From Puniceicoccales bacterium (GTDB lineage: Bacteria > Verrucomicrobiota > Verrucomicrobiia > Opitutales > LL51), in NCBI GenBank assembly GCA_031255715.1, contig JAIRRZ010000009.1:1-56252 (forward strand): DNA of 56,252 bases, written 5' to 3'. How positions within the stretch are numbered: position 1 is the stretch's first letter; each line of letters starts with the position of its first letter. Positions 1-45,779 of this stretch are shown here, in pieces. A program made the position numbers and the translations under genes. The notes under the pieces were generated by a model that worked only from the letters and a program-made list of their open reading frames with translations, searched no databases and was not told the DNA's origin.

Positions 1-206
1 GCCAAACCATGCGACGTTTTCGCTTGGTTGGGCCGCATAGGTCTTAAATTAAAATATTAAAGCCCCGCCCGCGGCGACGCCGCGGGCGGGGGTCTCAGGA
101 CCCCCGGTCGTCCGGCACCACGGGCAACGCCCGAGGTGCCGGACACAACCCCGGTCCAGGGGATGGATCCCCTGGCGGGGATCCCTAAGGGCGCGCAGCC
201 CTTAGG
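1..206. repeat. GC-rich composite palindromic element, locus A (modules P1 / AT linker / P2 / P3 / P4 / P5; P1 cut by window edge)
   Basis: Self-complementary arms read directly: P2 ccccgcccgcggcg-a-cgccgcgggcgggg (63-91), P3 ccggcacc..ggtgccgg (112-142), P4 ccagggga-tgga-tcccctgg (156-175), P5 cctaagggc-gcgca-gcccttagg (184-206). Colinear with 55994-56199 and, for P2-P5, with 11793-11927. Nearly pure G/C in an AT-rich background. Confidence 0.9.
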
Positions 207-257: not shown

Positions 258-869
258 GTGGAAGGAAAAGTTAATAGTTTTACATTAATTGAATTAGTAA
301 CGGTAATCGCATTGATATCGGTATTTTTATTTTTTCTAATAAAATTGAATATTACAGCGGGTAACGAAAGTCGACAAGTTAAAACAGCAGCATTGCTTCT
401 CGCATCGGGTTTTGACGACGCACATGGACAAGCGATTGTAGGTAATACCTACGTAAAACTTTTTATCGATACATCATCACATTGGAAGTTTCAACGAATA
501 GCGATTATGAAACAAAAGAACAATGCCTGGGAAGTAGAACGCGAAATTTTACTCCCCGAGCGAGCGTTTATCTTACCTTTAAATGATTTTTTGCAATATT
601 TCGTTGACGGGAAAAACCTTTCGACATATACTTATTCTGAAGAAAGCAACACTTTACAGGGAGAGACCGTTAAGGGTTATCGCTTCATTTTCGATTCGGA
701 AGGACATCTATCCCCTGCAGCGGCAACAATTTTGGGAATTGGTTATGGTGCGAAGGTTAGCAATAACATAGAATTAAAAAAAGACATTAACATTTACGGA
801 TTATTTATTACAGCGATGGGAAATACAATAGTATTGGAGTCAAAAAGTGCAATAGAAGAAGCAATATGA
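258..869 (+). CDS. Prepilin-type N-terminal cleavage/methylation domain protein (minor pseudopilin, GspH/FimT-like)
   Basis: GTG start. N-terminus ..VNS|FTLIELVTVIALISVFLFF has Glu at +5 and a hydrophobic helix. The stop overlaps the next start (ATGA at 866-869). Confidence 0.75.
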   Translation: MEGKVNSFTLIELVTVIALISVFLFFLIKLNITAGNESRQVKTAALLLASGFDDAHGQAIVGNTYVKLFIDTSSHWKFQRIAIMKQKNNAWEVEREILLPERAFILPLNDFLQYFVDGKNLSTYTYSEESNTLQGETVKGYRFIFDSEGHLSPAAATILGIGYGAKVSNNIELKKDINIYGLFITAMGNTIVLESKSAIEEAI

Positions 870-1372
870 GACAGGGATTTTCATTATTGGAGGTAATTTT
901 GGCCATTGGAATTTTAGGCCTTTCATTACCAATACTTTTGACGTATATGGCAGAAAGTGCGACAAAAACAGAGAAACGGATACAGGAAATCCTCATTGTC
1001 AATATGGGAAAAAATGTGCAAAACATTTTAAGTGCAGTGAATAAAGCACCGATGTTAGATGATAATAATCGGGCCTATTGTGGGTATAGGAATGGAATTT
1101 TTACAATAACGAATTCGGCAACAGGCTTTGGAGAAGCCGTTTTTGTACTAGGCCAAGAAACAGAAAAAGTTATACTTGGAGGAAAGGTTAGGGAAATACT
1201 TTATAGACTCTATTCTTGGAACAGTAAAAATCAAAGTTTGCGATTGATATTACCACATGCCGAAGTATGGCAATTCATTATTATGGATAGTGCAGAAACC
1301 GTCGCATGGATAAATAAGGCTGTTTTAGGGGATATTTTACAGAAGGCATCAAAAATTCAACCGAACGGGTAG
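866..1372 (+). CDS. Prepilin-type N-terminal domain protein (pseudopilin)
   Basis: MRQG|FSLLEVILAIGILGLSLPILL has the G-F cleavage motif, Glu at +5 and a hydrophobic helix. Translationally coupled to the upstream pseudopilin gene. Confidence 0.7.
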   Translation: MRQGFSLLEVILAIGILGLSLPILLTYMAESATKTEKRIQEILIVNMGKNVQNILSAVNKAPMLDDNNRAYCGYRNGIFTITNSATGFGEAVFVLGQETEKVILGGKVREILYRLYSWNSKNQSLRLILPHAEVWQFIIMDSAETVAWINKAVLGDILQKASKIQPNG

Positions 1373-1616
1373 TTTTCCTACAATGGGGCTCAAACAATGA
1401 TCCAAGAAGCCATTGATGCAGCTTGGAACTTTATTTCTAGCGATAAGCAATACGGAAAAAGCCATAAAAATATGGCCAATATCTACCGAACTATCTACAA
1501 ATTTTTTTATTACTTCATCGGTTAAACTTACCTTTTTTCGAAAAAATCTGTAACATGCATACATTATAATTCTGCTTCACAATGCGCCATTAGATGCCTA
1601 GAGTTAAACTCATCTC

Positions 1617-2216
1617 ATGAAAATCGATAATATTAAAATCTATGATTTTGAGGAATGTATCGTTGCCAGTGGATTACCCATGCTTTCTGCCTACGATGAA
1701 AATGAATTTGCCGACAACGTTATGCAATTGAAAAACAATCTTGCCCAAGGTCTGAGCAGCAAGCATATCTCCCGTGCGCGTAAACTAGCATCTAGCGACT
1801 CCGCTTCTGGACATTGTAATTTCCTCAAAGGTATCCTTGTGGCATGCAATGTGACAGGAACCCAAGCCTGGTGGATACAGGCTGGGCGCTATGGCCACTT
1901 CGTCATCGATTCAAGTATGTCCAAAATGCATCGCCTGAAATCCATGAATCTGGAAACGTGTTGCCATCCAAAAACATCTGTAATTTCACGGCAGGAAGTC
2001 GAAAAATTAGCTGAACTTGACGATATCGAATCACTCATTTACGCCTGTCCCATGGGGCTAGAACTTACCGCTCGGATCAATACAAACTATATGCAATTAC
2101 GTATCATGTACCACCAACGTAAGGCCCATCGACTTTCCGAATGGCATACCTTTTGCCACTGGATTGAATCGCTTCCCCTTGCTAAAGAATTGCTCGCTAC
2201 TGATACAACGGAATAA
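1617..2216 (+). CDS. ThyX-fold-like protein with degenerate ThyX signature (function unknown)
   Basis: 199 aa. Blocks GHCNFLKGILVACNV..AWW and CPMGLELTARINTNYMQLRIMYHQRKAHRLSEW resemble flavin-dependent thymidylate synthase ThyX blocks recalled from memory. The RHR..S.RY signature is replaced by QAGRYGHFVIDSSMSKM. The ORF is clean with normal composition. Confidence 0.45.
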   Translation: MKIDNIKIYDFEECIVASGLPMLSAYDENEFADNVMQLKNNLAQGLSSKHISRARKLASSDSASGHCNFLKGILVACNVTGTQAWWIQAGRYGHFVIDSSMSKMHRLKSMNLETCCHPKTSVISRQEVEKLAELDDIESLIYACPMGLELTARINTNYMQLRIMYHQRKAHRLSEWHTFCHWIESLPLAKELLATDTTE

Positions 2217-2377
2217 ATCAATATTTTTTTAGTCCAATAGAAGGACAAAATCCATTTCTATTGTTCAACAATCCAAGCTTAGTATTTTCTTGCGTAAAAG
2301 GGTAAGATCTTTTTTGCGGTCTTTTCCTTCAGCCAATTTATTTAGCTTTCACCAGTCTTGATCACTGATACCGTGAT

Positions 2378-3565
2378 TTAGGTACCGGTTTTTTCTACTT
2401 CTGTTTGCTGTGGAAGACTATTTTGTTTTTTATATTTTGCCTCAATTGCATCAACTTTTTTCTTAGACGTACTAACCCACCTTTTTGCAGGCATCTCATT
2501 AACTTGTTTAACAATTAATGCAAGATCTTGTTCCACATTCTTTGCATTTGAAGGAATTTTAAGATCACCATATCCTCCTTTTGAAATTTTTTCTTCAAAA
2601 GCATCCGCTTTTATCCATACTTCAATCGCCTTTTGTAATTGCGTTACTATTGGAATAACTTTATTTTTGAATCTGAGAGACTCAATTGTATTGAGTGAAT
2701 CGGTCAGAGTTTTGATATCTTGTTCGACGTTTAGAAGACTTTTGCCATCCTTAGAGTTACCATATTTGCCTTCCGAAAATCTTTTGAAAATCGCTTCCGA
2801 GCGTATTATTGTCTTACATTTATAAGCAAATTCACTTAATAACTGACCTTTTCCATCTGGTTTTGATTTCACTGCATTTACAATGTTATCAATATCAGAA
2901 CAAGCTTTTAAAAGATTGGGTGCCTGTGCTCGCTCACCGTATTGTCCACTTAAAAACTCTTGCATAATTCCTTGAATTTGGGCCTGTGCTTTACTCCTTT
3001 CGGCATATGCTTGAATCCACAAACTCAAGGCAGAAGACTGTGTTAATTTTTGATATTGCTGTGCGACGACATCGATTTTTTCGCATATTACTTTTTTATT
3101 GTCCGTAGCAGACGTTTTGCTAACATTGTTTTTCATGTTTGTTAGAATCCCCAATATTTTTATAGCTACTTTAGCCTGAATTGCGGAGATTGTAGTTTCT
3201 GATTGTAAGTTTGAAGGGTAACTTTTCATCACCATATCAACTGCATTGAGCGCTTTATCAATAGCATCGGCAGAATTGGTATCGCCATAATGCCTTTTCC
3301 GGAAGCTATTTACAATGTCCCCGCATTTCATTTTAAGCTCTTTTCTTCGTTCAAGTCCAGAATCCGTACTCTTGGGGTTTTTGTCGTTATTGGTCAATTG
3401 TGGCGGTCGTGCATCCTTTAATGGTCCAGCAACACTTTTTGCCTTTGATTCAAGAGCTCCGCTACGAGAAATCCACTTTTCGGCATTCGCTTGGGTACTT
3501 GGCCCATGACCGGCTTGTAGTGTATTTATCCATAGCAATCCTAGAACAATATTTTTTTTATCCAT
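2378..3565 (-). CDS. Secreted protein with four internal G-x-YG repeats, unknown function
   Basis: N-terminal signal-like MDKKNIVLGLLWINTLQAGHG. Four copies of a ~35-aa unit: F.k.HYGDtnsadaidkALnavd, SGQYGERaqapnLLkacsDIdniv, EGKYGNSkdgkSLLnvEQDIktl, KGGYGDLkipsnAknvEQDLali. Confidence 0.6.
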   Translation of the reverse strand: MDKKNIVLGLLWINTLQAGHGPSTQANAEKWISRSGALESKAKSVAGPLKDARPPQLTNNDKNPKSTDSGLERRKELKMKCGDIVNSFRKRHYGDTNSADAIDKALNAVDMVMKSYPSNLQSETTISAIQAKVAIKILGILTNMKNNVSKTSATDNKKVICEKIDVVAQQYQKLTQSSALSLWIQAYAERSKAQAQIQGIMQEFLSGQYGERAQAPNLLKACSDIDNIVNAVKSKPDGKGQLLSEFAYKCKTIIRSEAIFKRFSEGKYGNSKDGKSLLNVEQDIKTLTDSLNTIESLRFKNKVIPIVTQLQKAIEVWIKADAFEEKISKGGYGDLKIPSNAKNVEQDLALIVKQVNEMPAKRWVSTSKKKVDAIEAKYKKQNSLPQQTEVEKTGT

Positions 3566-3689
3566 ATCTTTCCCTTTATCTCAAACTACAATTAGCTAAG
3601 TAGTTATATATTCTGTACATGACTTTATAATTGTCAATAATTTTTCACATAAGATATAAAATAAAATGATAACATTTTAAGTGTAACGT

Positions 3690-3717
3690 AAAAAAACGAG
3701 TGAAATGCATCACTCGT
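3690..3717 (-). terminator. Rho-independent terminator downstream of the 3841-4074 ORF
   Basis: 8-bp stem acgagtga/tcactcgt (3696-3703 / 3710-3717) with a 6-nt loop. On the minus strand it is followed by a run of 6-7 T (A run 3690-3696 on plus). Confidence 0.6.
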
Positions 3718-3840
3718 TTTCCAATATAGTTCATTCTTTTACCGCAACTAAAGAAACTGGATCACAATGACTTTTTAAAGCCCATGATATAAATTTCAAT
3801 TGCTGGGAAAGTATTCATTATTTGTTTTCTTATTAATATC

Positions 3841-4074
3841 CTAAGATCCCTCAGCTCCTTCAATATTTTCATCGGGTTTTGAAGTTGGTGAAGATTCCTG
3901 TTGCGGTTCAAAAGAAACTTCAACCGGCTCACAATCCAGTAATGGGGACATTACTATTTCTGGAACCGAAGGAGAAGATGCCTGATCGCAAGCTCCCCAA
4001 ATGTTTTCTGTAGCAACACTTAGAACTAATAATTCTAAACCAATCTTTATTATTTTAATACTCATATTTAACAC
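3841..4074 (-). CDS. Small secreted acidic protein (hypothetical)
   Basis: N-terminal hydrophobic segment IKIIKIGLELLVLSVA, then a Pro/Ser/Glu-rich tail. A terminator lies downstream. No recognisable family. Confidence 0.4.
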   Translation of the reverse strand: MLNMSIKIIKIGLELLVLSVATENIWGACDQASSPSVPEIVMSPLLDCEPVEVSFEPQQESSPTSKPDENIEGAEGS

Positions 4075-4315
4075 TCCTTTTTAGATATATTCTATAAATA
4101 GAATTATTTTTCCCTAAAATAACGAGAAATTATTTGTATCTATGTTCTTTTTTTGCCTATCGCACCTGTTTCATTAGGCGTTCATAGACATTACTAATTT
4201 CTTAGGCTTTTGCCATAGCTTGTTCTATGCTTGTGTATTCACATTCCGGTTTACCTTTATTTAGTGCAAACTTATTGGAATGATAACTTAAACATAGCTC
4301 GCCGATAGGCTTTTT

Positions 4316-4909
4316 TTATTTCACCCTGCAAAGCTCCTTTTGAAATTCCCAGAGTATGTAGTCTTCACCGCTTGCTTGGCTCACTTTTGTCATTTGACCA
4401 CAGACAAAATATGGAGACTGCTTAATTGTATCCGCAGCATCAAAAAACATAACTCTCTTTTCTCCTGGAATAAGAACCCCGGGTTCAGAAGAATCCAATT
4501 TCTGTCGCAAAACTCTTTGTATTGTTTCTGGAGTTATTGGTCTTACTGGCAAGCCAAATATCGCAAACGCAGCATTTACTTTTTCGCTTTGTAATAAAGC
4601 ATTCAAATGCTGAACATATTGGGAAAGGTCCTCTACGGCCTGTATAGCAATGGGAAGCTCCGTATAAGTTTTATTAATTCCATTGGAGACTTGTTGTATA
4701 ACATATATATCATTTTGCTCTCCGAAGGCACCAAGCACGTAGGGTTGATAGAATCTTTCTTGTATTTCTTTACATGTCAATAAAGCAGCCGCACGCATGG
4801 CATTTTCCTGTATGCTATTCCTTATTTGGTCTATGACTTCCTGTGCGTTTACTTCAGCAGAACTTGTTTGCACCTGTCCATTAATTAACATTTTTATCAT
4901 TTTATTCAT
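4316..4909 (-). CDS. Hypothetical cytoplasmic protein
   Basis: Clean 197-aa ORF with protein-like composition. No signal peptide and no family recognised. Confidence 0.5.
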   Translation of the reverse strand: MNKMIKMLINGQVQTSSAEVNAQEVIDQIRNSIQENAMRAAALLTCKEIQERFYQPYVLGAFGEQNDIYVIQQVSNGINKTYTELPIAIQAVEDLSQYVQHLNALLQSEKVNAAFAIFGLPVRPITPETIQRVLRQKLDSSEPGVLIPGEKRVMFFDAADTIKQSPYFVCGQMTKVSQASGEDYILWEFQKELCRVK

Positions 4910-5025
4910 ACCCTTTAACTTGATAGAACAGATTATAAATATTTTAAGATAATTACAATGTGTTTTTTTATTTCTTATATGATTTATTTTTACGATCTGC
5001 GGAAAGTATTATTTTTTTAAACAGA

Positions 5026-5051
5026 AACGAGAACGTTTTTTCGTTCTCGTT
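5026..5051 (-). terminator. Possible terminator hairpin after the 5131-5394 ORF
   Basis: 10-bp stem aacgagaacg/cgttctcgtt with a T6/A6 loop. The trailing T tract on the minus strand is poor (tctgttt). Confidence 0.3.
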
Positions 5052-5130
5052 CTATTAAAATTTAAGTTTATTTATAATATTGCTGATTTTTTACACTTTT
5101 CAGCGGATTCTGATAGAATAATTTTTATGA

Positions 5131-5394
5131 TCAATCAAAGAACTCAGAATCCTCGTCGCTATCTTCATCACTATCTTCCTCATCGCTATCCTCTTCGTCG
5201 CTACTCTGATCCCAATCATTAATAGCTTTTAAAGGTCTGATCAAATGTGAATCATTGAAAGCGAATTCTGGATTCAACCGACTATATTCGTTATACCTTT
5301 CTTGATCAAAATTCGCTCTATTGCTAGCATCTAAAGCTAAAGCGCTACCAGTAATGATCAATCCATAAACCATCTTCAAGATTTTTTTTCCCAT
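5131..5394 (-). CDS. Small secreted protein with Ser/Asp/Glu-repeat C-terminal tail
   Basis: Signal-like MGKKILKMVYGLIITGSALA. C-terminus SSDEEDSDEEDSDEDSDEDSEFFD is encoded by an imperfect ~15-nt DNA repeat (tcgctatc[ct]tc..). Confidence 0.55.
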   Translation of the reverse strand: MGKKILKMVYGLIITGSALALDASNRANFDQERYNEYSRLNPEFAFNDSHLIRPLKAINDWDQSSDEEDSDEEDSDEDSDEDSEFFD

Positions 5395-7210: not shown

Positions 7211-7630
7211 CTACTTTAAAAATAATTCTTCTGGTGTAAAAAAACGTTTCAATTCCGCCTGGGCACTAGCCTCGCTATCTGAAGCATGAGCAATATTGCG
7301 CATCTTATCCGTTCCCCAATCACCACGTATTGTACCTTTGGGAGCGGCTGTAGAATCCGTTGGTCCCAGTAAAGCGCGAACTTTAGTGATGATATTCTCT
7401 CCTCTTAATGCGATTACAATGACCGGCTTCGAACGCATAAACATAAGGATATCCGCAAAAAAAGGTAGAGCTACGATGTGGCCATAGTGCTCTTTTAGTA
7501 AGTTCTCAGACAAAACCATCATTTTGCAACCCACGATTTCACATCCTTCTTTGTTCAATCGTCCAATAACCTCCCCGGCAAGCCCTTTTTCCATACAATC
7601 TGGCTTGAGAATAATCAATGTTGTTTCCAT
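7211..7630 (-). CDS. ndk: Nucleoside diphosphate kinase
   Basis: METTLIILKPD.., GPTDS..A.KGTIRGD.., NIAHASDS with the active-site His. Start moved to the internal ATG at 7630, because the 55 codons upstream in the ORF are not NDK-like. Confidence 0.9.
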   Translation of the reverse strand: METTLIILKPDCMEKGLAGEVIGRLNKEGCEIVGCKMMVLSENLLKEHYGHIVALPFFADILMFMRSKPVIVIALRGENIITKVRALLGPTDSTAAPKGTIRGDWGTDKMRNIAHASDSEASAQAELKRFFTPEELFLK

Positions 7631-7846
7631 TTTAATTTCTTCTTTCTTTAACATCTTCGTCTCCTCCTTTGATACTTCCATTGCTTTTCCCGGTGCTACG
7701 ATTGAAGCAATCGATGTATTTGCTGAAGTATGAACAACCCAAAAACTACCCATAAAAAATGATATTCCTGCAAGGCAGCCCCTAAAAAAATCCATGAACT
7801 GGAAAATAAACTGCCTTTCACTCTAATCAAGCAGAAAAATTGCGTT

Positions 7847-8614
7847 CTAACAAAAACCGCGCTGGGAAGACTCAATTGCTTGAATAACAGTATCGTAGAC
7901 TGCAGAAGTTTGTTTGCAACATTTCAATTGTACCAGTGCCTCAGAATGGTTTTTAGTGGAATGAAAGAGAATGCGATAGATATTTTTTACGTGTTCGACA
8001 TCCGCTGCAGAAAATTGATGGCGTTGCAGATTGATCTTATTGAAATAACGTGTTCTTGCCGGTTGTCCTTCGGCAATCATAAAGGGCAAAATATCCATAA
8101 CCGTTTTGGAACTTGCCGCTAGCATCGCGTAATCTCCGATGCGGCAAAATTGATGAACACCAGAATTCCATGCGATATTTACATAATTTCCAAGGATAAC
8201 ATGTCCGGCCAGGGCCGCCAAACTACTCACAATAACATGGTCGCCAACCGTACAATCGTGCGCCACATGGGCATAGGCTAAAAATGCATTGTGATGGCCA
8301 ATTTTTGTAATATTTCCTTCCTTCGTAGCGCCGTGAATTGTCACGTATTCGCGAAAGATATTGTGATGGCCAATTTCAAGTCCGGTTTGTTCGCCAGTAT
8401 ATTTCAAATCCTGCGTCTGGCCTCCCAAAAAAGCGTAGGGAAAAATCACATTATTTTCCCCTAAAATGGTATAACCATCGACCGAAGCATGGTGTTGGAT
8501 GACTGTCCCAGAGCCGATGGCAACATTTTTCCCGACGAAAGCAAAGGCGCCGATCGACACCTTTTCTCCAATATTTGCTCCATTTTCAATGATCGCTGTT
8601 GGATGAATATTCAT
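7847..8614 (-). CDS. lpxA: Acyl-ACP--UDP-N-acetylglucosamine O-acyltransferase
   Basis: [28 protein letters not shown] hexapeptide repeats and LpxA-type length. 4-nt overlap with the upstream lpxC/fabZ. Confidence 0.92.
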
Positions 8615-9930
8615 GATGCTTTGACCACCGAAAAAACAAGTTCCGCCGAAGATACAACCTGACCATCTATTTTACATTCCGCCGATGCAACACCGATTTT
8701 ATCGCCGCGATATTTTATGATTTTCACGGAAATTTCTAATTGATCTCCCGGAGTCACCGGCTTTCGAAATTTTACTTTATCACAACTCATAAAATATGCT
8801 AGCCGTTGTTCATATTGGTAGCGTTTTAGCATTAGTATTCCTGCTGCCTGAGCCATTGCTTCGACCTGCAAAACCCCGGGCATAACCGGATGCCCTGGAT
8901 AATGCCCTACAAAATAGGGTTCGTTAATGGTTACATTTTTCACAGCTCGAAGTGAATTATCATCGATAAATTCTATTACGCGATCGATTAAAATAAAGGG
9001 ATAGCGATGGGGTAATGTATTTAGAATTCTTACAATATCAAAGGCCGTATTTCTCACGATCGAAGTTTTAAGTTCGGGTCTTTGCGCTATCGTTTTCGTA
9101 CCTTCCCGATGTTGTCTCCAAATTTCTTTTGCCAACTGGACGTTAAACGCATGGCCGGGGCGAATCGCAATAATATGACAACGTAAATCCATTCCCAAAA
9201 GTGCCATGTCTCCTATGATATCAAGCATCTTATGACGCACAAATTCATCGCTAAAGCGTAAAGGTTCTTTGGATAGAACCTGATCGCCTTTAATAAGAAT
9301 AGCCGAATCCAGACTTGCACCTTGAATTTTTCCGCATCGCAAAAGAGGTTCTATATCCTCATAAATCGCAAATGTTCTTGCCGGAGCAATATCACTTGTA
9401 TAACTTTCAGGATAAATGTCGAGTGACAAATGCTGAGTAAAAAGTCCCCGATCATCGGCTGAAGTACAGGTTATTTTGAACCCGTTATAGGGCAATGCGA
9501 TGAGTGAACGATTACCTTCGGTAACGGAAATAGGTGTGTGTAATTTAAAGACTTTCCGCTCGGCATCGAGTTCCATAGGTTCCGCTTCGTAAAGCAAATT
9601 GACATAAAATTTTGCCGATCCGTCGAGGATGGGTGGCTCTTCCGCATCAATTTCAATGAAGATATTGTCAATATGCAGGCCACTAAGGGCACTTAAAATA
9701 TGTTCAACGGTGTAAATTTGAATATCATTGGACGAAATTGTCGTACAGCGGATCAGATCTCCCACCATTTCCACTGATGGCCGTAATTCCGGCTTATTAT
9801 AAAGGTCGACGCGGCGAAAAACAATCCCCGTGTATGCAGGCGCTGGTTTGAAGACGAGCTTGACCGTTTTACCCGTATGAAGTCCGATACCCTGAATAGA
9901 AATTTCCTTCGAAATGGTACGCTGTCCCAT
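8611..9930 (-). CDS. lpxC/fabZ: Bifunctional UDP-3-O-acyl-GlcNAc deacetylase / 3-hydroxyacyl-ACP dehydratase (LpxC-FabZ fusion)
   Basis: N-terminal LpxC ([16 protein letters not shown].., [19 protein letters not shown]) is joined to C-terminal FabZ ([13 protein letters not shown].., [22 protein letters not shown]) in one 439-aa frame. Confidence 0.92.
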
Positions 9931-11315: not shown

Positions 11316-11571
11316 ATTCTACCTCCAGAATTTTCCATACTCACAGAGTTCTTTTATAGATCAAATAAGTCTTTGAACTTATCAATTAAAAAATTACTTC
11401 ATTTTTTTAGTATCACCAAGAATCGGCATAAACCCTAGAAAATTTGAACACGAAATTTTGCGAAAATTATTTCGAAAAGCTAAATTAATTGCGGAAAATA
11501 AAAATGATTTCGAAAAAACCTCCGTCAAAGATAAAAATATCCACAGGTTAATAACATTTCAATGTGAATAA
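11308..11571. promoter_or_regulatory. Candidate DnaA boxes / oriC region upstream of dnaA
   Basis: 8/9 matches to TTATCCACA: ttattcaca (11308-11316), atatccaca (11537-11545), tgtgaataa = ttattcaca on the other strand (11563-11571). They sit in a ~400-bp AT-rich non-coding stretch. Confidence 0.4.
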
Positions 11572-11736
11572 CTTTTCCATGGTCTCTGAAACTTAAGTCT
11601 TTAGGATTTGGATTATTTTTTTGTATCGTGAAATTGATAAAGTATATTTATGCCCTTGCCATAAAAGAAAAAATTTCTATTTGATCTTGAAGAAGTGTAT
11701 CCCCACAGGCTTCGCTTCATATCTTACAAGATTAGT

Positions 11737-12069
11737 CAGAGGGCTTTGCCCTCTGGACCCCCGCAAGGAGTTCGGACTCCTTGACCTCGATACGCGGCGA
11801 AGCCGCGGGCGGGGTCTCAGGACCCCGGTCATCCGGCACTTCGGGTGTTGCCCAAGGTGCCGGATGCAATCCAGGTCCAGGGGATGGATCCCCTGGCGGG
11901 GATTCCTAAGGGCGCGCAGCCCTTAGGGAGCCAAATATGGGACTCTGCCCCGCCCCATACCCCGCAAGGAGTTCGGACTCCTTGACCTCGATACGCGGCC
12001 AAACCATGCGAAACTTCGCATGGTTTGGCCGCACGGTCAATGCCCGCCCGCGGCTTCGCCGCGGGCGGG
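11737..12069. repeat. GC-rich mosaic palindromic element cluster, locus B (P6-P7-halfP2-P3-P4-P5-P8-P7-P1-P2)
   Basis: Hairpins: cagagggc-ttt-gccctctg (11737-11755); caaggagt-tcgg-actccttg (twice); atccggcac..gtgccggat (11831-11865); ccagggga-tgga-tcccctgg (11877-11896); cctaagggc-gcgca-gcccttagg (11905-11927); ggccaaaccatgcgaa-ac-ttcgcatggtttggcc (11997-12030); cccgcccgcggc-ttc-gccgcgggcggg (12043-12069). Confidence 0.9.
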
Positions 12070-12136
12070 ATAATCCAGGTAATCCAAAAAACAGATTGCA
12101 AGTTCTTGAATTTCCGCAAATTGGCAATAGCTGAGA

Positions 12137-12586
12137 ATGGAAGCAATCCAGGAATTATATCAGGAAATTATCATCGACCACAGTAATTGTCCACGGAATG
12201 AGGGAAAAATCGAAAATCCGACCCATATCGCCGAAGGTTATAATGCAACTTGTGGCGATGAATTGACCATTTCGTTATTAGTAAAGAATGAAATTATCGA
12301 AGATATAAAATTTCAAGCCCAAGGTTGTTCCATTTCTAGGGCTTCTGGATCCATGTTGACAGAAAAAATTAGAGGAATGTCCTTTAATGGAGCATTGAAG
12401 TTTTCTAATAATCTCCGAAAAGTGCTCAGCAATGATTTCTCGGAAACGTTCGATGAAAATGAAATGGGTGATCTCGTCGCATTACTAGGTATAAAACAGT
12501 TTCCCATGCGCATCAAGTGTGCTACATTGGCCTGGCATACTTTTGAAAACGCATTAAAAAATATCACAAAGAACATCGTGAATTGA
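12137..12586 (+). CDS. sufU: SUF-type Fe-S cluster scaffold SufU (NifU N-terminal family)
   Basis: LYQEIIIDHSNCPRNEG.., NATCGDELT.., GCSISRASGSMLTE.., FPMRIKCATLAWHTF: all three Cys ligand blocks, colinear with Bacillus SufU. Confidence 0.88.
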   Translation: MEAIQELYQEIIIDHSNCPRNEGKIENPTHIAEGYNATCGDELTISLLVKNEIIEDIKFQAQGCSISRASGSMLTEKIRGMSFNGALKFSNNLRKVLSNDFSETFDENEMGDLVALLGIKQFPMRIKCATLAWHTFENALKNITKNIVN

Positions 12587-13858: not shown

Positions 13859-16800
13859 TTACGCCTCTATGCGAAATGGAAGGGCTAAACTTTTAATTTT
13901 TTCGTAATTGAAATTACAATTTAATTGTTCGGAAACATTGCGCCGAATTTGGCTACCATCTTCGCATGTAAAAACTAAAACACTTTCCGTTATTCCCGAA
14001 TTATGGTAAATGTAATCCCAAATTTTATCGAGCAATATGGAATCTTGAGGATCAACAATCCAATGAACTTTTTTTATGATTTTAGCGAGAGTATTCCCCA
14101 TATTGGCGATTTCTTGCACAACAAATCGATCATCGTTTTCCATTTTTTTCCGATTGCCGTTTACCACGATAATATTTTCATCAATGAGTAGATGGCCATA
14201 TTTTTCAAAAACACCGGCAAAACAACTTAAAATAAGTTTTTCCGTCAACATTTCCAATTGGAAAGTCGCCCACAGACGGCTGTCCTTTTTGGTAATACGC
14301 TTCTCAACAAGCCCTACAACACCACACAATTGAAATTCAACTTCAATGGCTGCTACGGAAGATACCGAATTAACTTGATCCAGCACATCGCTATAGTCAT
14401 CCAAAGGATGGCCTGTAACATAAAAACCTAGTAACGTTTTTTCATAATTTAACTTTTCAGCTTTCAACAATACGGGCCCCGTTTGGTCGATGGCATTGGA
14501 AAGTAGAGGTGTTTCCGTTGCCAACATGTCAAATAGTTGGAATTGGCCCGCATCGCGGTCCTTTTGCAGCGATGACGCTTCCGACATCATTCGCTCCAGA
14601 ACTTGAGCTAAATGTAACCGATCGACACCAAATTCATCGAAGGCCCCACTGAAAATTAAACATTCTGCTACGCGTTTATTAATTATTCGTAAGTCAACTC
14701 GACTAATAAAATCGGAAAAATTTTTAAAATCACCGTTTCGCTCCCGCTCTCTGATAATATTTTCTGCGGCAATATCCCCTACACCTTTAATCGCGCCAAG
14801 GCCGAAACGGATACATTGCCGTTGATGATTAGGTGTAAAATTGTCAAACGATTGATTAATATCAGGTCCTAGTACGTCGATACGCATACGGCCGCATTCG
14901 GAAATAAAATAAGCTACCTTGTCCACATTGCCCAGTGCCGCAGATAACATCGCTGCCATGAACTCTACGGAATGATTGGCCTTAAGATAAGCCGTCTGAT
15001 AGGCAATAATAGCGTAGGCGATGGAATGGGATTTGTTAAATCCATAACCGGCAAATTTCTCCAGTATGGAAAAAATCTCCTCCGCTTTTTCCCTAGAGAT
15101 ATTGTTGTGTTTTCTAGCACCTTCAACAAAGACACTGCGCTGCGCATCCATGACTTCGACCTTTTTCTTTCCCATCGCACGTCGCAAAATATCGGCACCA
15201 CCAAGTGTGTAACCTGCGATGATACGGGCCGCTTCCATTACCTGTTCCTGGTAAATCAAAATGCCGTAGGTCTTTCGACAAACATCTTTTAAAAGTGGAT
15301 GAGGATATTTTATTTTTTGTGGATCTTTTTTCCCAGCAACATAATCGTTAATCCATTCCATGGGCCCAGGACGATAAAGAGCACTGATGTCGCTAATTTC
15401 TTCCACGCTGCGAATTTCCAAACGCTTGCAAAGGGAGCGCATTCCCGCCGATTCCCCCAGTTGAAAGACGCCAATGGTTTCACCATTATTGAGTAATTTA
15501 TAGGTGTTTTTGTCATCATAGGCGATGTTATTCATGGAAAATTCAGGATCGTATTTTTGAATAAAACGCTCGCTATCTGCAATGATAGTCAGCGTAGTTA
15601 GGCCTAAAAAATCCATTTTTAGCAAACCCAAATCCTCAACGGCTTCCTTGGCATATTGGGTAGTAAGTACCCCCTCTTGGAGCGTGATGGGTAACATATT
15701 TTCAACGATATCCTCCGTAATAATAATACCGGCGGCATGGGTACCGGTATTGCGAACTGTACCTTCAATAATTTTTCCATCTTCTAAAATTTTTCCAATC
15801 CTGGGATTGAGATGAATTTCTTGTTGCAATTCTTTAGATTTTTCCAAAGCAGCATCAATGGAAATATTGAGTTCGTCGGGAACCATTTTAGCAATGCGAT
15901 TAGCCTCAACATAGGGAATGTCGTTGACGCGGCAAAGGTCACGAATCACCATCTTCGCACCAAAGGTACCAAAAGTAATAATATTGCCGACATGGTCATT
16001 GCCATACTTTTTACGGACGTATTCGATAACTTCACCGCGGCGGCGCATGCAAAAATCGATGTCGAAATCGGGCGGCGATACGCGCTCCGGATTGAGAAAA
16101 CGCTCAAAAAGTAATCCGAATTTCATGGGATCCACATCCGTAATGCGAATCAAATAAGCAATAATTGAGCCCGCTCCAGATCCTCTTCCCGGACCAACCG
16201 GTATGCCCTGCGCCTTTGCCCAATCGATAAAATCCCAAACAATTAAAAAATAATCCACAAAACCAGTCTTTTTTAAGATCGATAGCTCGTAGTCCAAGCG
16301 ATTGCAAAGTATCCATTCCTGTGACTCTGCCACACGTTCCTGTGGATCGACGTACTCAATGGTATAGCGCATTTTTAGTCCTTCGATACACAATTTTTTG
16401 AGGTAATCGAAATTGGATTCCCGATAGGGTACTCTTTCAGGACTTCTGGAAAGAATTTCAGATTTTTCGACTTCCTTGGAAAGCCCAGCGGCTACGCCGC
16501 TGGGCTCTTCAAAAGGCCCGATCCCAAAGGGATCAGGCAACGAAGTTGCCTGCCCGGCACTTTGTGCCGGCCGGGCCTTTTGATCCGCCGGCCACGACCG
16601 TAGGTCGTGGCCGGCTCTGGGTCCAGGGGATTCATCTCCTGGCGAGGTCTGGGGCAGAGCCCCAGAAACTATTTCCTGTCCGGAATCTTCATTCTCTGAA
16701 CCTTCGCAAAAAATTGCCTCGGCTTCCGATATCGATCGAAAAATCGACACAGCTTGCCCAAATTCACGGACTGAATAATCTGATCCAAGGGATGGATCTA

Positions 16801-17779
16801 AAAAAGAACTACGAAAGTCCTGCCCCATTTGTTCCAAATTTTGGACGGAATGAACGAGAAAATCACTGGCTTCTTGCGAGGTCTGGGACGGTATCCCAGT
16901 CTCTACCTCAGAAAGTGATCGACGAAAGACCGGGAAATGATTTTCGCCGTAACGTAGGGTAAAATCACACATATCGGCAATAAGCTGCGTATGGTCGAGG
17001 CATTCGGAGTGATCGCTAAATATTCGTTCCATTTCTTCTCGGGATTTGATGTAGAGCTGGTGCGTACTCATACGGAAACGATTGGTATCGGTTACCTTGG
17101 CAACGGTTTGGATACACAATAGCTGGTCATGGGCCTCCCAATCTTCCTGGAAAACATAGTGGGAATCATTGGTTGCGACAGTTCTTATGTCATTTTTTTC
17201 GGCTAGATCAAAAAGTATGGGCAGAATAGTTTGCGATTCGGGCATACCATGGTCCTGGACTTCGATAAATAGGCGATCTTTGCCAAAAATTTTTATAAGC
17301 CAGTCGAGTCCTTTCTGAGCGGACTCGACATCATTTCGCAGTGCCATGGAAGAGAGATAACCTTGATAACACCCCGTTAAACAAATTAATCCTTCCCCAT
17401 GAGTTGCAATGGTTTGCCAATTTATGCGAGGTCGATAATAAAAACCTTTCGTATGGGAAAAAGAAACGAGTTTCGATAAATTTTTATATCCCACTTCGTT
17501 CATGACTAGGAGTCCCATGTGGTAGAGTGGAAATTTTTCTTTTAGAGTATAATCTTTATCGAAGGTCGTATAAAGCTCGCAACCAATAATGGGTTTGATG
17601 CCGAATTCTTTTGCATATTTGAAAAAATCGGGAACACCGAATAAATTACCGTGGTCAGTCATGGCGAGGGCATGCATACCCAATTCTTTTGCCCGTGCAA
17701 AGAGGCGATCCATGCGACAAGCTCCATCGAGCAAACTATAATCGGTGTGCACGTGTAGGTGAACAAAGTTTTTCGCCAT
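13859..17779 (-). CDS. dnaE: DNA polymerase III alpha subunit carrying an in-frame ~165-codon insertion
   Basis: PHP motif [15 protein letters not shown], palm/fingers [40 protein letters not shown]-like [27 protein letters not shown]. Start at ATG 17779 (MAKNFVHLH). Insertion at 16418-16921. Confidence 0.93.
16482..16666. repeat. String of GC-rich hairpin modules, locus C, inside the dnaE reading frame
   Basis: agcccagcgg-ctacg-ccgctgggct (16482-16506), gatccc-aaa-gggatc, ggcaac-gaa-gttgcc, ccggcac-tttg-tgccgg, ccggccacgacc-gt-aggtcgtggccgg, degenerate P4 ccagggga-ttca-tctcctgg, tctggggc-aga-gccccaga (16648-16666). No stop in the dnaE frame. Confidence 0.8.
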
Positions 17780-17892
17780 GGATCGATTATACGAATTCCT
17801 TCCAATATGGGTCAACGACAAAAATATTTTAATTATAAATTTTATATAAAAAGCTTTACGATATGTAAATTATTACTATAATCAATCCCATT

Positions 17893-18612
17893 ATGTGGGA
17901 TAAATATTACAAAAATTTGGGTATAATTTCTTGTTTATTGGGAGTAAGCTTATGCGAGATCAAAGCAGGAACAGCTATGAAATGCGACACTTTTTCATCT
18001 CAAGACGTTAAAACTTCACTAAAAATAAATGGCCCCTTGCAAACCTATGCAGCGATTACTGCTAAGGTGCAGGAGATGTTAAATAAAGTAAAAAATAATA
18101 TAGATTGGATCAATGATCTAACGGAAAGTATAAATGAAGCCTTAAAAAACCGACCTGAAGTCCGCCCCGATCTCTGCGCCCTAGAAGACAAAAGAAAGCA
18201 ATTAATTGACGCTTTTACTCGGTGCAATAAAGAAATAAAATATGAGCCTCAGGGAAATTGCAGTCCACTCGTTAATGCTATAAAAGATCTTAAAGAACTT
18301 CAGTTAGGTATCCAGGAATTTAAGATTACTACAGATAAACTTTTGGTAGTCATCCGTCAAATTATTCAAAAAAATCAATATACACCAGTAATTCAAAGTT
18401 GGTATAATAGTAAATTGGAACTGAAACTCATCGACCGACATGAAAATGAAATAGAGGAAACAATCAACCAAACCATTCAGATAGTCATTGTTTCTGTGGA
18501 AGCTTATAATGAAGCAGCCTATGAAGAACGTAATCGTGGCTCCTACACAACGCCATCTCATCGTTCGCTTACGCCGTTTTTTAATTCCTATATACAGACA
18601 ATGGATTGTTAA
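17893..18612 (+). CDS. Hypothetical secreted protein
   Basis: N-terminal hydrophobic LGIISCLLGVSLCEIKA, then helical Lys/Glu/Asn-rich sequence. No family recognised. Confidence 0.5.
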   Translation: MWDKYYKNLGIISCLLGVSLCEIKAGTAMKCDTFSSQDVKTSLKINGPLQTYAAITAKVQEMLNKVKNNIDWINDLTESINEALKNRPEVRPDLCALEDKRKQLIDAFTRCNKEIKYEPQGNCSPLVNAIKDLKELQLGIQEFKITTDKLLVVIRQIIQKNQYTPVIQSWYNSKLELKLIDRHENEIEETINQTIQIVIVSVEAYNEAAYEERNRGSYTTPSHRSLTPFFNSYIQTMDC

Positions 18613-19574: not shown

Positions 19575-19654
19575 ACTCCCATTATCCGAATGATGGTAAA
19601 AAATAACGCGCTTGCAACCCTTGATCATAATGAAAAAAATTTTCTCATAGGTTA

Positions 19655-19784
19655 GCCGCACAGGTCAACCAGAGGGCTCCGCCTATGGAGCTCTGCCCCA
19701 TACCCCGCAAGGAGTCTGGACTCCTTGACCTCGGTACGCGGCCAAACCATGCGAAGCTTTCGCATGATTTGGCCGTATAGGTCA
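19655..19784. repeat. GC-rich palindromic element, locus D (P1-tail fragment / P6 half / P8 / P7 / P1)
   Basis: gccgcacaggtc, cagagggctccgcc, tatggagctctgccccatacc, caaggagt-ctgg-actccttg, ggccaaaccatgcgaag-c-tttcgcatgatttggcc (19740-19774), then gtataggtca + T run + taattaaata as at the other P1 copies. Confidence 0.9.
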
Positions 19785-19829
19785 TTTTTTTAATTAAATA
19801 TCTTACGAGGAATCTTCAAATAATTATTT

Positions 19830-23757: not shown

Positions 23758-24387
23758 ATGAACACAGAAAATTCTAATGAAGATTTAAATGATATATTTA
23801 AATCCTCCAATTTAGGTGACAAAATATGGCTATTTTTTTCGAAGTATTCACGTATATTAGTGTCGATAGCAATAGTTGTCGGTTTAATTTTGCTCCTTAC
23901 ACTTATCATTATTACTGGTCGAAGTATCTGTAAGCGATCGATGAAGGCAGCATATTGGCAGGCAGTTCAATCGGAAAATAAGGAATGTTTTGCACAGAAA
24001 TATGTTTCCAATCCATTGGGCGGAAGCATTTATCTGGAATTAGGCGATAAGGCCTATAAGGAAAAAGAATATGAAAAGGCAGCCAAATACTACCATCTCG
24101 CACGTATTGGTTTAGGCAAAAGTATTTTTGGCGGACGGGCAGCAATAGGAGAAAGTATTTCGCAGATGCATGCAGGTTTTATTCAAGAAGGAGAGGAAGG
24201 ATTGAAAAAAATTATGGAAGAGTCATATCCGTCCCATGTTATTGTGTATGCTATGTATCTTTGGGCAATAAATTTAATGTCAAAGGGAGAACGGCGGCAC
24301 GTACGGGAGTGGCTAAATAAGATTATGAATGGTGATTTCATACAGCCAATGAAGGAGCAAGCACAAAAATTATTTTGTCAGATATAA
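23758..24387 (+). CDS. Membrane-anchored TPR-like protein (YfgM-like?)
   Basis: A single TM (ILVSIAIVVGLILLLTLIIITG) followed by a helical-repeat region (YLELGDKAYKEKEYEKAAKYYHLA). Assignment is tentative. Confidence 0.45.
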   Translation: MNTENSNEDLNDIFKSSNLGDKIWLFFSKYSRILVSIAIVVGLILLLTLIIITGRSICKRSMKAAYWQAVQSENKECFAQKYVSNPLGGSIYLELGDKAYKEKEYEKAAKYYHLARIGLGKSIFGGRAAIGESISQMHAGFIQEGEEGLKKIMEESYPSHVIVYAMYLWAINLMSKGERRHVREWLNKIMNGDFIQPMKEQAQKLFCQI

Positions 24388-28864: not shown

Positions 28865-29269
28865 TATTTCGCAAAAGCAATTTTATTAAAAACCTTACGA
28901 TTTAAAATTAAAAAATATGATTATTTTAAAAATTCGAGCAACCATACTTGATTTTCATTCACCAAACAAAATATTGACACGAATATATGAAAAGATTGTC
29001 CATGTGCTACCTACTAACCCAGCTCCTATAATACCTTCAGTTTCTTCTCAGCCAAAAGGAAAATGCTCCATAGAACAAACATAACATACTTACTAAATAA
29101 AACGATGAAAATAAGGAAAATATACTTTTTAATCATAAATATTTGACATATATATTGTAAATATTGGCACCAATTTGTAACAAAAAATAAAAAAATATTT
29201 ATTTATTTTAATAAAAATTAACAAAAAAACTTGACATCAAAACAAACTTGGACAACACCATACTCACCT

Positions 29270-30704
29270 ATGAATAAAATGAAATACATATATTTTTTGT
29301 CGCTAGGGGTAATGGCTTTTGACTACGGCACTTACGGAACTGAGAAGACAATAACTCTCGACCAAGCCGCGAATCAACGACAGTCTGGGATAAACGTTGA
29401 CAGCTATAACTGGCATACTGAACAAAAAAAAGAGTATACAGCCGATGAGCAACAAAAACTAAATCAGTTGGAACAGGAAATTCTTAAGATGCAAGAAGAA
29501 ATGTCACAATTTTTTGATGAAAAAAAAAGCACAAGTTGTGCTGCCAGTATATTGCCCAAATGTATGTCAACCTTTTTGGCCGGAAATTAGAGGGGGAAGA
29601 ATTAAAAAAAGAAGTCACGAAGATCGAACAAATACTTATCAATGGAAAAAATAAACAAGTCGATACGTAAACGTTTACTACCGATAATGACAATAGTCTT
29701 TACGGAACGAAAGATTTTTTCAATCAAGTTTATGATCCACTTAGACAGTTGGTTGCCAATGCCGTTAATAAATCAGATAAGGCAGATCTGCAAGATTTTT
29801 ACGAACGAATTGTGATGTTTTGTGCGACGGCACGGGGAGTTATCGCTCAGGTAGCAGACTCGGAAGATATGGATTACTTTGGACTACCAGTAAAGAACTG
29901 TAACACTTGTCTTGTCGAGAGTTTTAGTAATACATTCAATCCAGCACAGATCTATTTTGCTCATTTGGTAGCGTCTGAAAATGATCACACCAATCCCGAG
30001 AATGGAAAAACATTCCAACCGAAGGAACATGAAACTTCACTTGGAAGCAAAATAACTGAATACGGGCATATTTTTCATTCTAAAAAAAATATGATGCTCG
30101 TTGGTGGCGATCTTTTTAGGGAATGCATAGAAACGGCAAAGTATTTAAAAGAAAACCCAAACAATCAACAAGCCCGTACGAATTTCACACAAGCACTAAA
30201 GAAATTTATATATGTTTGGAGTCACTCTTCTACCTTCAAGAGAGGCCAAGCCGCTGTATTGGAAATACTTATAGACGGTTTAGCAAAATTTACAGGCTCC
30301 CAGGTCAAGCGACCGGAAGTCCAAGAAAAAGAAAAAACAGTACTCACTCAATTAAACGAAACATTTCCCGATGCGGGGAATATAATAAGCAAAACGGAAA
30401 CAAGTTATAATGTTCTAACATATCCCTACTTCACTAACGGAACACGGTCGAAAGAGACCGCGTGCTTTTGGAAAGAAAAAAGAATCCAGAATGGATTAAA
30501 GCTTTCTATCATCACTACGATGTATTTGCATTGTGCATGCCTAGCTTTGCAGTGTTCAATAAGCAATACAAGCTCGAATTTATTCCGATTAAAAGGCAAC
30601 TGCCCATGTCTAGATTTAAAAAATCTAGCTTTAAAAAAGTCAGCGATATCGGTGTAAATTTATTTCGATTGAAAGGCAACAAAATACCCGTTAAAAGTAA
30701 TTAA
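29270..30704 (+). pseudogene. Disrupted gene for a secreted protein (frameshift at A9 tract, in-frame TAA, second frameshift near the 3' end)
   Basis: Signal-like MNKMKYIYFLSLGVMA. Frame 1 stops at 29588. The frame entered by adding one A to the A9 run (29520-29528) reads on protein-like (..EELKKEVTKIEQILINGK..) to TAA 29668-29670, and continues in the same frame into the 302-aa ORF. The two 3' ORFs overlap, and a 24-nt direct repeat is read as NLFRLKGN in both frames. Confidence 0.6.
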
Positions 30705-33683: not shown

Positions 33684-34067
33684 ATGACTTATGATAAAAA
33701 ATCTTTTAAAAATATTTTTACAGTCAATGCTATCGATGCAGCTGAGCCATCGTCAGCGTATGCGAATGGGGAATGGATCAGAGAGCAATTAATAGCCAAC
33801 GATAAAGTCGGACCGAATTTTGTAGGAAAAGTTAATCAGATGTTGAATGAGATTGAAAGAAGTCCATTTAATGCGGAAACATCAGGCCAAAAGCTTAAAA
33901 AGCTTGCAATTTTTCCATCAATTGACAATGATAGATTCTTCTATAGAACCATTTATGAAGTATATAAACGTCCCGTAAAACACAAGACAATACGGTTTCA
34001 TTGTTTGGCCACATACTTAAATTTATATTACCATTTACCTTTTATCGTCCATATCTGTGAACGATAA
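33684..34067 (+). CDS. Hypothetical protein, possibly the 3' remnant of a degraded gene
   Basis: 127-aa ORF. Its frame is open without a start from 33612, and protein-like reading continues upstream in another frame (33473-33655) interrupted by TGA 33509-33511. Confidence 0.3.
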   Translation: MTYDKKSFKNIFTVNAIDAAEPSSAYANGEWIREQLIANDKVGPNFVGKVNQMLNEIERSPFNAETSGQKLKKLAIFPSIDNDRFFYRTIYEVYKRPVKHKTIRFHCLATYLNLYYHLPFIVHICER

Positions 34068-37569: not shown

Positions 37570-37923
37570 TCAGCACGGTGGCCAAATCATTGGCTTACCA
37601 GCTAAAAGATGGATATGTAAATGGGGAACGCTTTCTCCAGCATCGGGACCATTATTAATTACCACACGAAACCCTTTCGATAAGCCTTGAGTTTGCGCAA
37701 ATTTTTGCGCCATCAAAAGTAAATGCCCCAGAATTGGCACATCACTTTCCTGGGCCTCCGCAAGCCGAGGAATATTTTTTTTCGGAATAATCAGAACATG
37801 TATTGGCGCTCCAGGATTAATATCACGAATTACGATGCATTGCTCATCTTCCATGAGGATTTCGGCTGGAATTTCATGGTCAATAATTTTTTGAAAAATA
37901 TCTCTTCCACCATTTGAATTCAT
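37570..37923 (-). CDS. HIT-family nucleotide hydrolase (HinT-like)
   Basis: IFQKIIDHEIPAEIL.., DINPGAPIHVLIIPK, histidine triad VPHLHIHLL. Start at the internal ATG 37923, because the upstream 55 codons are not HIT-like. Confidence 0.88.
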   Translation of the reverse strand: MNSNGGRDIFQKIIDHEIPAEILMEDEQCIVIRDINPGAPIHVLIIPKKNIPRLAEAQESDVPILGHLLLMAQKFAQTQGLSKGFRVVINNGPDAGESVPHLHIHLLAGKPMIWPPC

Positions 37924-45542: not shown

Positions 45543-45779
45543 ATGGAAAGTTCGGCCGAAAAACTAATAAAATATGTGCTCGAAAAACTCGAAACGGAAC
45601 CCGTCGAGGAAAGGGTGCGACTTTATGATGTTTTAGCGGGCTTTATGCCCGACGAAGAAGCCAGCTCAAAATTAAGAGAATGCTCAGAAGAATTACGTCA
45701 AATTGACTTAAAAATTCAAGGTCTTAAATCTTTCTTTTTTTTAACTAATAAACATGAAAACTACGAATGTAAATGTTGA
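45543..45779 (+). CDS. Small acidic helical protein (hypothetical)
   Basis: 78-aa ORF from ATG 45543. It overlaps the next ORF by 26 nt. No family recognised. Confidence 0.35.
   Translation: MESSAEKLIKYVLEKLETEPVEERVRLYDVLAGFMPDEEASSKLRECSEELRQIDLKIQGLKSFFFLTNKHENYECKC

Follow-up and report, generated by a model that had tools for sequence, protein, structure and literature searches.

REPs are imperfect palindromes of 20-40 nt that occur in many copies, mostly outside genes; REPINs combine two copies of one REP in inverted orientation and are mobilised by RAYT (Y1/HUH) transposases. REPs are defined by a conserved unpaired GTAG (or CGTC) tetranucleotide at the foot of a palindrome; GTAG REPs are abundant in Opitutus terrae, which belongs to the same class as the host studied here, and Di Nocera et al. 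reported REPs inside replication and repair genes (PMC3733652). RPEs are about 100-150 bp long, have a large share of their copies in coding regions and have no known transposase (PMC10969869, PMC1779305). MITEs and the pneumococcal BOX, RUP and SPRITE elements are non-autonomous, shorter than 500 bp and form stable folds; BOX is built from internal modules whose number varies, and SPRITE resembles an intrinsic terminator (PMC10969869). It is not yet settled how palindromic repeats without a tag, such as RPEs, and the CGTC REPs move (PMC3733652). The repeat family described here offers useful material for that question, as it occupies a compact clade whose mapped sites hold a copy, lack one or have had it replaced, and it extends composite hairpin repeats to uncultured Puniceicoccales (Verrucomicrobiota).

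We analysed a stretch of 56,252 nucleotides (the window) from a Puniceicoccales bacterium of about 40% GC, whose best named DnaA matches are Puniceicoccales MAGs. Among the housekeeping genes on this stretch are dnaA, dnaE, topA, gyrB, an lpxC-fabZ fusion, PBP2, secDF and recJ. About a dozen of the roughly 45 window ORFs scanned against Pfam had no match of any kind. An earlier note, made from the sequence alone, had pointed to 11737-12069 as the type locus of a mosaic family whose GC-rich hairpin modules invade an AT-rich genome. The hairpin complementarity was upheld on re-reading: 11737-12069 is an uninterrupted series of GC-rich hairpins, and the DNA fold of 11730-12075 reached -129 kcal/mol, whereas dinucleotide shuffles gave -71 +/- 4 (z = -14). 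The individual modules measure 19-38 nt. We used two covariance models, R1 for a longer group of modules (the L half, P2-P3-P4-P5-Plast) and R2 for a shorter one (the S half, P6-P7-P1). Together with repeat finding, these models supported the recurrences that the note had listed at 1-206, 19655-19784 and 55934-56252 and, in degenerate form, at 16482-16666; R1 and R2 matches occur at five loci only in the 56-kb window. The GC content of the five loci is 0.64-0.76 versus 0.40 for the window, in line with the contrast that had been claimed for the family. Spanning about 1.3 kb (about 2%), these loci hold 26 of the 39 GC-rich hairpins with a stem of at least 8 bp in the window, and the fold of 55925-56252 gave z = -10.6. 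Four of the five are wholly or mainly intergenic and one is fully within a gene. Most intergenic copies have the same orientation as a neighbouring gene; the copy at 19669 is opposed to both of its neighbours.

Features of the repeat family in the window, with the evidence on which each one was placed
Feature	Position	Strand	Evidence
S half, 3' part (right part of P1 and AGGTC tail), cut by window start	1-43	+	alignment A1; R2 match 1-54
AT-rich spacer	44-62	+	CTTTAAT...ATTAAAG palindrome in consensus
Complete L half (P2, P3, P4, P5, Plast)	63-206	+	R1 match 60-208, 156.7 bits
P6a hairpin	11737-11755		
P7 hairpin, first copy	11764-11783		
P2, distal half only	11795-11813		
P3 hairpin	11810-11827		
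P4 hairpin	11830-11866		
P5 hairpin	11877-11896		
Plast (final hairpin)	11903-11929		
P6b, degenerate	11935-11959		
P7 hairpin, second copy	11965-11984		
P1 hairpin, 18-bp perfect stem	11995-12032		
P2 hairpin, 12-bp perfect stem	12043-12069		
Unit 1	11737-11932	+	R1 match 11782-11929 (139 bits), R2 match 11736-11822, consensus alignment A1
Unit 1 deletion junction CGCGGC	11793-11798	+	comparison with consensus unit in alignment A1
Unit 2	11933-12085	+	R2 match 11935-12049 (96 bits), alignment A1
Whole dnaE insertion, residues 302-467	16421-16918	-	protein alignments; between FPVFRR and ESNFDYLK
Variant L half: P2, three-hairpin branched module, P4, P5, Plast	16480-16669	+	R1 match 16526-16669
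S half, 3'-end remnant (right arm of P1 and tail)	19642-19666	+	repeat family D6
S half (P6a/P6b chimera, P7, P1) and spacer start, without L half	19669-19801	+	R2 match 19683-19794, 119 bits
S half (P6a, P7, P1), begins within PBP2 ORF 3' end	55933-56036	+	R2 match 55933-56047, 116 bits
PBP2 stop codon TGA	55980-55982	+	in right arm of P7
Expanded AT-rich spacer	56037-56076	+	alignment A1
L half, inner part of P4 deleted	56077-56201	+	R1 match 56074-56202, 119 bits
Extra GC-rich hairpin sequence outside consensus unit, runs off window end	56203-56252	+	hairpin listing, fold

The architecture of the family became clear from a contig of another sample. A spurious ORF of 105 aa on the flagged locus has one relative in the protein databases (P0121), and this relative led to contig L008, which carries a head-to-tail array with a period of 274 nt, 4.9 copies and 90% matches that runs off the contig end. 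The period of this array spans both halves; therefore the short and long units that the note had described, which both do recur, are not separate units but the halves of one unit of about 274 nt (P6-P7-P1, an AT spacer, P2-P3-P4-P5-Plast and a short linker). Each unit carries a fixed series of eight or nine different hairpins, and units occur as solo copies, as truncated copies and in head-to-tail arrays; the copy at 55933-56201 is a full unit with an expanded spacer. All window-type copies are colinear with this one unit in alignment A1 and differ by deletion, truncation and tandem repetition, so that the idea of modules shuffled into different combinations does not hold within the lineage. 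Replacement of a whole stem was met only between species.

The two ends of the unit resemble each other. One motif recurs in variant form in its first and last hairpins, CCAGAGGGC...GCCCTCTGG and CCTAAGGGC...GCCCTTAGG, and L011 has a P6a-type hairpin in the last (3') position. Several of the solo copies begin at or beside the CCAGAGGGC hairpin and end directly after GCCCTTAGG, which gives the unit recurring boundaries. A terminal inverted repeat amounts at best to this shared end hairpin, CC(A/T)(G/A)AGGGC...GCCCT..GG, and none longer is present. Across genomes P7 and P5-Plast are the best-conserved parts and the interior stems are lineage-specific; a short form of P4 is common to the copy at the window end and one unit of the L008 array. 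In the centre, the consensus spacer CTTTAAT TAAAAAT ATTAAAG is a 7-bp palindrome. P1 has an extended GACCT/AGGTC stem followed by a T-run on the plus strand, and P2 is followed by a T-run on the minus strand, both terminator-like. Judged from these features, the unit centre (P1, T-rich spacer, P2) could act as a two-way terminator.

At the flagged locus we found two such units in tandem, both eroded. Unit 1 runs P6a, P7, a deletion, distal P2, P3, P4, P5, Plast and linker, the deletion having removed P1, the spacer and the 5' half of P2. The note had remarked on a string cgcgg joining P7 to P2; this junction is real, and comparison with the consensus showed that the deletion end-points share CGCGGC, a 6-nt microhomology common to the end of P7 and the middle of P2. 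Unit 2 consists of a degenerate P6b, P7, P1, P2 (without the spacer) and then AATCCAGGT, a short remnant of the P4-P5 linker; P3, P4 and everything beyond the remnant are deleted. The P1-P2-flank junction of unit 2 is matched base for base in an independent Logan contig, L001. The junction of unit 1 was not met in any second assembly. We take the locus to be an old insertion upstream of dnaA, and as an eroded copy it is not representative enough to serve as a type locus. Its ORFs (11621-12146), which had been called artefacts, are without real relatives, their sole match being another ORF called on a repeat copy. We also considered the locus as part of oriC and rejected this, because the conserved DnaA boxes (11537-11571) lie outside the repeat and the repeat is absent in relative L006.

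Contigs of relatives were retrieved via their DnaA proteins. The family, which extends beyond the contig of the window, was found in eight related contigs from other samples, in independent assemblies of seven JGI samples and one Logan run; it went undetected in two relatives at a greater distance. Among relatives with a DnaA identity of 84-95% (L003, L004, L005, L010 and L011) the repeat is present, at several loci on each longer contig. L009 (74%) has degenerate traces only, and neither L006 (75%) nor the first 11.5 kb of a closed 878-kb genome, L007 (73%), gave an R1 or R2 match. Copies matched by R1 or R2 were found in L003, L004, L005, L008, L010 and L011. The window ends inside copies on both sides, as do contigs L001, L004, L005, L008, L010 and L011 at an end, which is the pattern that a high-copy repeat would leave in assemblies. 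A literature search on the habitat of the lineage found nothing.

The earlier note had proposed a comparison of filled and empty sites, and such sites do differ between close relatives. The lpxA-ndk spacer is about 50 nt long and empty in the window and in L005 and holds an element of about 400 nt in L003, both flanks being alignable. Of the two spacers beside the Na/Ca exchanger gene, the one that is filled in the window is empty in L003 and the other way round, and the dnaA-sufU spacer measures 821 nt in the window versus 355 nt, without hairpins, in L006. At the filled and empty lpxA-ndk and exchanger sites no target-site duplication or target motif was readable, the flanks being too diverged. 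In close relatives copies are gained, lost or replaced at different sites. They erode through deletions, of which one or more took place at a short direct repeat.

One site is shared more widely. The window and contigs L003, L004, L010 and L011 all have a copy upstream of dnaA, at a distance of 307-432 nt and with one and the same orientation. The gene beyond it is sufU in the window and L003, nrdD in L010 and an ABC ATPase gene in L011, and the L004 contig ends inside this copy. Synteny breaks adjoin the dnaA-upstream copy in L005, L010 and L011. Distance and orientation are kept although the gene on the far side differs; we take this to be an old insertion whose distal edge has seen synteny breaks. 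The L halves of window-type copies are 78-95% identical and two of the three L-half copies in L003 are 86% identical to each other. The dnaA-upstream copies of different genomes are only about 70% identical, so that copies within a genome are more alike than these, and the dnaA-upstream copies carry the stems typical of their own genome; the P4 stem, for example, differs in sequence among the window, L003, L010 and L011. The genome-typical stems at this shared site call for lineage-specific amplification with replacement, or gene conversion among copies.

One copy has entered an essential gene, that of the DNA polymerase DnaE. The degenerate recurrence around 16482-16666 was confirmed, but the note had missed that it is placed inside the dnaE reading frame: the copy at 16480-16669 is antisense to and in frame within dnaE (ORF 13859-17821, minus strand). 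Part of the whole insertion is older and has drifted towards AT; a decayed P5-Plast copy is found in it at about 16870-16901 (repeat D12). The insertion is located between the PHP and polymerase core domains. DnaE has 1164 aa in L006, which lacks the insert; with an insert it has 1320 aa in the window and 1233 aa in L003. The L006 protein has few residues between the conserved motifs, GNHYPIY (FPVFRR in the window) and then (E/D)SNF. Inserts at the same site are also found in L003, L005, L009 and a partial DnaE, P0122. None of the inserts seen breaks the reading frame, and in the window, L003 and L005 the hairpins are still there. Modules like those of 16480-16669 occur both in dnaE and in an intergenic region of L005. 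A HMMER search with the insert peptide against 1.84 billion representatives gave one match, a partial DnaE with the same insert, and no other protein family. The decay of this old in-frame insertion can be followed across genomes.

Searches for an enzyme and for known relatives of the repeat were negative within the following scopes. In agreement with the earlier note, which had seen no transposase in the window, no Pfam match to a transposase or recombinase was found among the approximately 45 window ORFs of at least 80 aa, and the genes called on related contigs, about 110 kb in all, showed no mobilising enzyme, RAYT included. The unit lacks the REP/RAYT signature, because GTAG and CTAC do not occur in the consensus unit and its sole CGTC pairs with GACG inside the P4 stem. 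Rfam 15 recognised only two tRNAs in the window, and for the L008 array the matches with the best E-values reached 26 bits versus gathering thresholds of 41-270. Plasmids, phages and viral contigs gave no match to the repeat. A synthetic six-frame query drew so many low-complexity candidates that nothing informative came of it. An exact search with a 23-mer of the S half in 185,579 species genomes gave one match only; the copies of L003 and L004 have at least one base of difference from the 23-mer, so related families would escape this search and its negative outcome is weak. The match lies in a coding region of a Thermoanaerobaculia MAG of 66% GC without flanking similarity, and we rejected it as chance. 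An S pattern and a cross-species P5-Plast pattern had zero matches in the JGI metagenome collection, which evidently lacks the samples of L003, L004 and L005, since the P5-Plast pattern matches L003 and L005 and the S pattern matches L004, all three being JGI contigs.

We then compared the repeat with the described systems. Like the enterobacterial BIMEs that are built from REP sequences, especially tandem BIME-2, and like REPINs, it is a composite of GC-rich palindromes and fixed linkers that is non-coding, mostly intergenic and sometimes arrayed (PMC3116915, PMC3733652). The analogy with BIMEs and RPEs that the note had drawn stands, but membership is not supported. Unlike BIMEs and REPINs, the repeat carries neither an unpaired GTAG or CGTC tag nor dimers of one palindrome arranged head-to-head or tail-to-tail; it is a colinear series of about 274 nt whose arrays are head-to-tail, no RAYT was seen in the window or related contigs, and its GC contrast with the host is strong. 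With RPEs it shares palindromic structure, an AT-rich genome and a location both in intergenic regions and in frame within conserved genes, where it adds peptide (dnaE residues 302-467 and the last 16 codons of PBP2). It is set apart from them, by description, as a chain of separate hairpins of about 274 nt that forms tandem arrays in another phylum, and one of five window loci is fully inside a gene, in contrast to the large coding share of RPEs. Like MITEs, BOX and SPRITE, it is small, non-autonomous and folding, and such insertions can fuse with or truncate ORFs; set beside MITEs, it showed no target-site duplication in flanks so diverged that a short one would be neither revealed nor excluded, its inverted repeat is at best an end hairpin, and no parent IS is known. 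Fungal mitochondrial GC clusters and double-hairpin elements are also GC-rich palindromes in an AT-rich genome, variable between strains and sometimes in frame in a gene. They are organellar, much shorter and without a conserved multi-hairpin unit, which leaves an analogy only. On the best reading, the repeat resembles BIME, RPE and MITE elements but is not assignable to any of these classes, the distinction from RPEs being one of description and that from MITEs tentative.

To what extent the fold is conserved was examined in eleven L halves, where 98% of cells in a model-based alignment were paired. Changes on both sides were found in 20 of 52 pairs, a number reached in 0 of 500 shuffles and compared with 1-7 in slid controls; the alignment was fitted to the structure, most of the double changes trace to two L003 copies in which the P4 stem as a whole was replaced, and templated mutation within hairpins can keep palindromes perfect without selection. 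Compensation within the lineage was seen in P1, where A-T is changed to G-C in one L008 unit and a G.T intermediate occurs in another. Mismatches on the written strand were more often G.T than A.C (16 versus 4 cells, 11 versus 4 pairs), which is a weak hint that one particular strand folds.

These observations bear on the question of whether the units are selfish at all. Hairpins conserved with changes on both sides, a G.T excess pointing to one folded strand, T-runs behind P1 and P2 on either side of the AT spacer and the shared orientation of most intergenic copies with a neighbouring gene would all suit cis-acting structures of RNA or DNA that the host selects, for instance as insulators, mRNA stabilisers or two-way terminators, or else a structured RNA in multiple copies; the hairpins would then be kept for the sake of the RNA fold. 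We consider this unlikely, as no Rfam family came near its threshold and presence varies between close relatives; a needed RNA would not be expected in arrays of 4.9 units or as eroded copies, the copy inside dnaE is antisense and is translated, and the copy at 19669 points against both neighbouring genes. An artefact of assembly, or a local duplication confined to this contig, is highly improbable. It could be argued from the window starting and ending inside copies and from the unit 1 junction being seen in one assembly, but copies occur in the independent assemblies described above, the P1-P2-flank junction is repeated base for base in L001, and the dnaE insert is in frame in several genomes.

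The family could also have spread without transposition, fragments of arrays being copied by illegitimate or microhomology-mediated recombination and then subjected to gene conversion. The solo copies with their recurring boundaries at CCAGAGGGC and GCCCTTAGG argue against such a process, as do conserved ends combined with variable interiors, a pattern expected if the ends are recognised. It would explain the deletion junction at a 6-nt microhomology, the tandem arrays, the failure to find a target duplication, terminal tag or transposase, and the synteny breaks beside the dnaA-upstream copy in L005, L010 and L011. On balance we regard spread of this kind as quite improbable.

Our preferred reading, with a probability of about 0.7, is that the family consists of non-coding, non-autonomous interspersed repeats that are selfish DNA. 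Counting against it, no enzyme was seen in the window or in about 110 kb of related contigs, and the similarity of copies within a genome could come from gene conversion alone, without transposition. If the repeats are selfish, their spread would depend on an enzyme that is encoded at another place in the genome, acts in trans and recognises the folded single strand. Tentatively, and with considerable doubt, our first candidate for this enzyme is a transposase of the HUH/Y1 type, akin to RAYT or IS200/IS605, that would act on the hairpins of the conserved ends, a guess made because the element is all hairpins, its ends are conserved and one strand seems favoured. The absence of a GTAG or CGTC tag, of such a gene in the window and related contigs and of a readable target duplication speaks against it. 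Arrays would grow by slippage or unequal recombination, and copies may be homogenised by gene conversion or replaced by new insertions. A two-way terminator in the unit centre would make intergenic copies tolerable. A bolder proposal, which we think improbable, is that the repeat represents a new class of structure-defined mobile element, apart from REP/RAYT systems, MITEs with TIRs and TSDs, and RPEs. In such an element the end hairpins of one folded strand (P7 and P5-Plast) would be recognised by a dedicated enzyme, or copying would proceed through an RNA intermediate; the replaceable interior would be kept for its fold alone, and the element would be able to colonise essential genes in frame.

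In practical terms, these repeats break assemblies of the lineage, yield false ORF calls and can change the ends of genes. The last effect is seen in PBP2, whose ORF (54075-55982) extends 49 nt into the S half that begins at 55933. The last 16 codons are repeat-derived, and the transpeptidase domain ends at residue 610 of 635.

The repeat upstream of dnaA (11737-12085 in the window, with counterparts in relatives) does not have the same neighbours in each genome. When the window was compared with its close relatives L005, L010 and L011, four different neighbours were found beyond it: sufU, GH3 together with a tRNA, nrdD, and a gene for an ABC ATPase. These differing far-side genes suggest that the genomes were rearranged and that the break-points lie at the repeat. 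Outside the repeat, and also upstream of dnaA, the window carries a conserved inverted pair of DnaA-box-like motifs, ATATCCACAGG ... TGTGAATAA (11537-11571), which was also found in L003, L004, L006 and L009, four contigs of related bacteria. This pair probably has a role in dnaA autoregulation or is part of the origin; cumulative GC skew showed no turn at this position.

All five repeat loci of the window have the same orientation, with the S half (P6-P7-P1) preceding the L half (P2-P3-P4-P5-Plast) on the plus strand. The window's genes lie on both strands, and GC skew is negative throughout (1-56252). Unlike the window, L003 has repeat copies in mixed orientations. The L003 units also contain additional, less GC-rich hairpins (GGCTAAGCCCTGCGA..., GCGACAACCCTACGTA...) separating the S and L halves, and the spacer in L004 has one extra GC hairpin. 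These extra hairpins thus mark the spacer between the halves as a site at which new hairpins arise. Past the last hairpin of the unit, more GC-rich hairpin sequence (CCCGCGGGCGCCCCCCGCAGG...) fills the window up to its end (56203-56252); it is absent from the consensus and may represent a further type of module.

Coordinates of dnaA starts, extra hairpins and ORFs without a Pfam match
Feature	Contig	Position
dnaA start	window	11315
dnaA start	L005	8028
dnaA start	L010	5032
dnaA start	L011	2487
Extra-hairpin regions of units	L003	2500-2640, 9440-9560, 13660-13720
Regions with Pfam-less ORFs	window	258-5394, 17893-18612, 23758-24387, 29231-30657, 33684-34067, 37922-38920, 45754-46110, 48795-50504

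The closed genome of one relative, L007 (CP095464.1, GCA_021294815.2; DnaA identity 73%), measures only 878,461 bp. Therefore, the wider lineage includes strongly reduced genomes, which are possibly host-dependent.

For about a dozen ORFs of the window, 87-569 aa in length, Pfam yielded no match with an E-value under 1e-5. In the nucleoside diphosphate kinase (7211-7795, minus strand), the NDK domain starts at residue 57 and is preceded by an N-terminal extension that is hydrophobic and about 55 aa long. The enzymes of L003, L005 and L006 also carry extensions, which differ in sequence, and the enzyme of L007 has none. In addition, lpxC and fabZ form a single fused gene encoding 439 aa (8611-9930, minus strand), and this fusion is kept in every relative examined.
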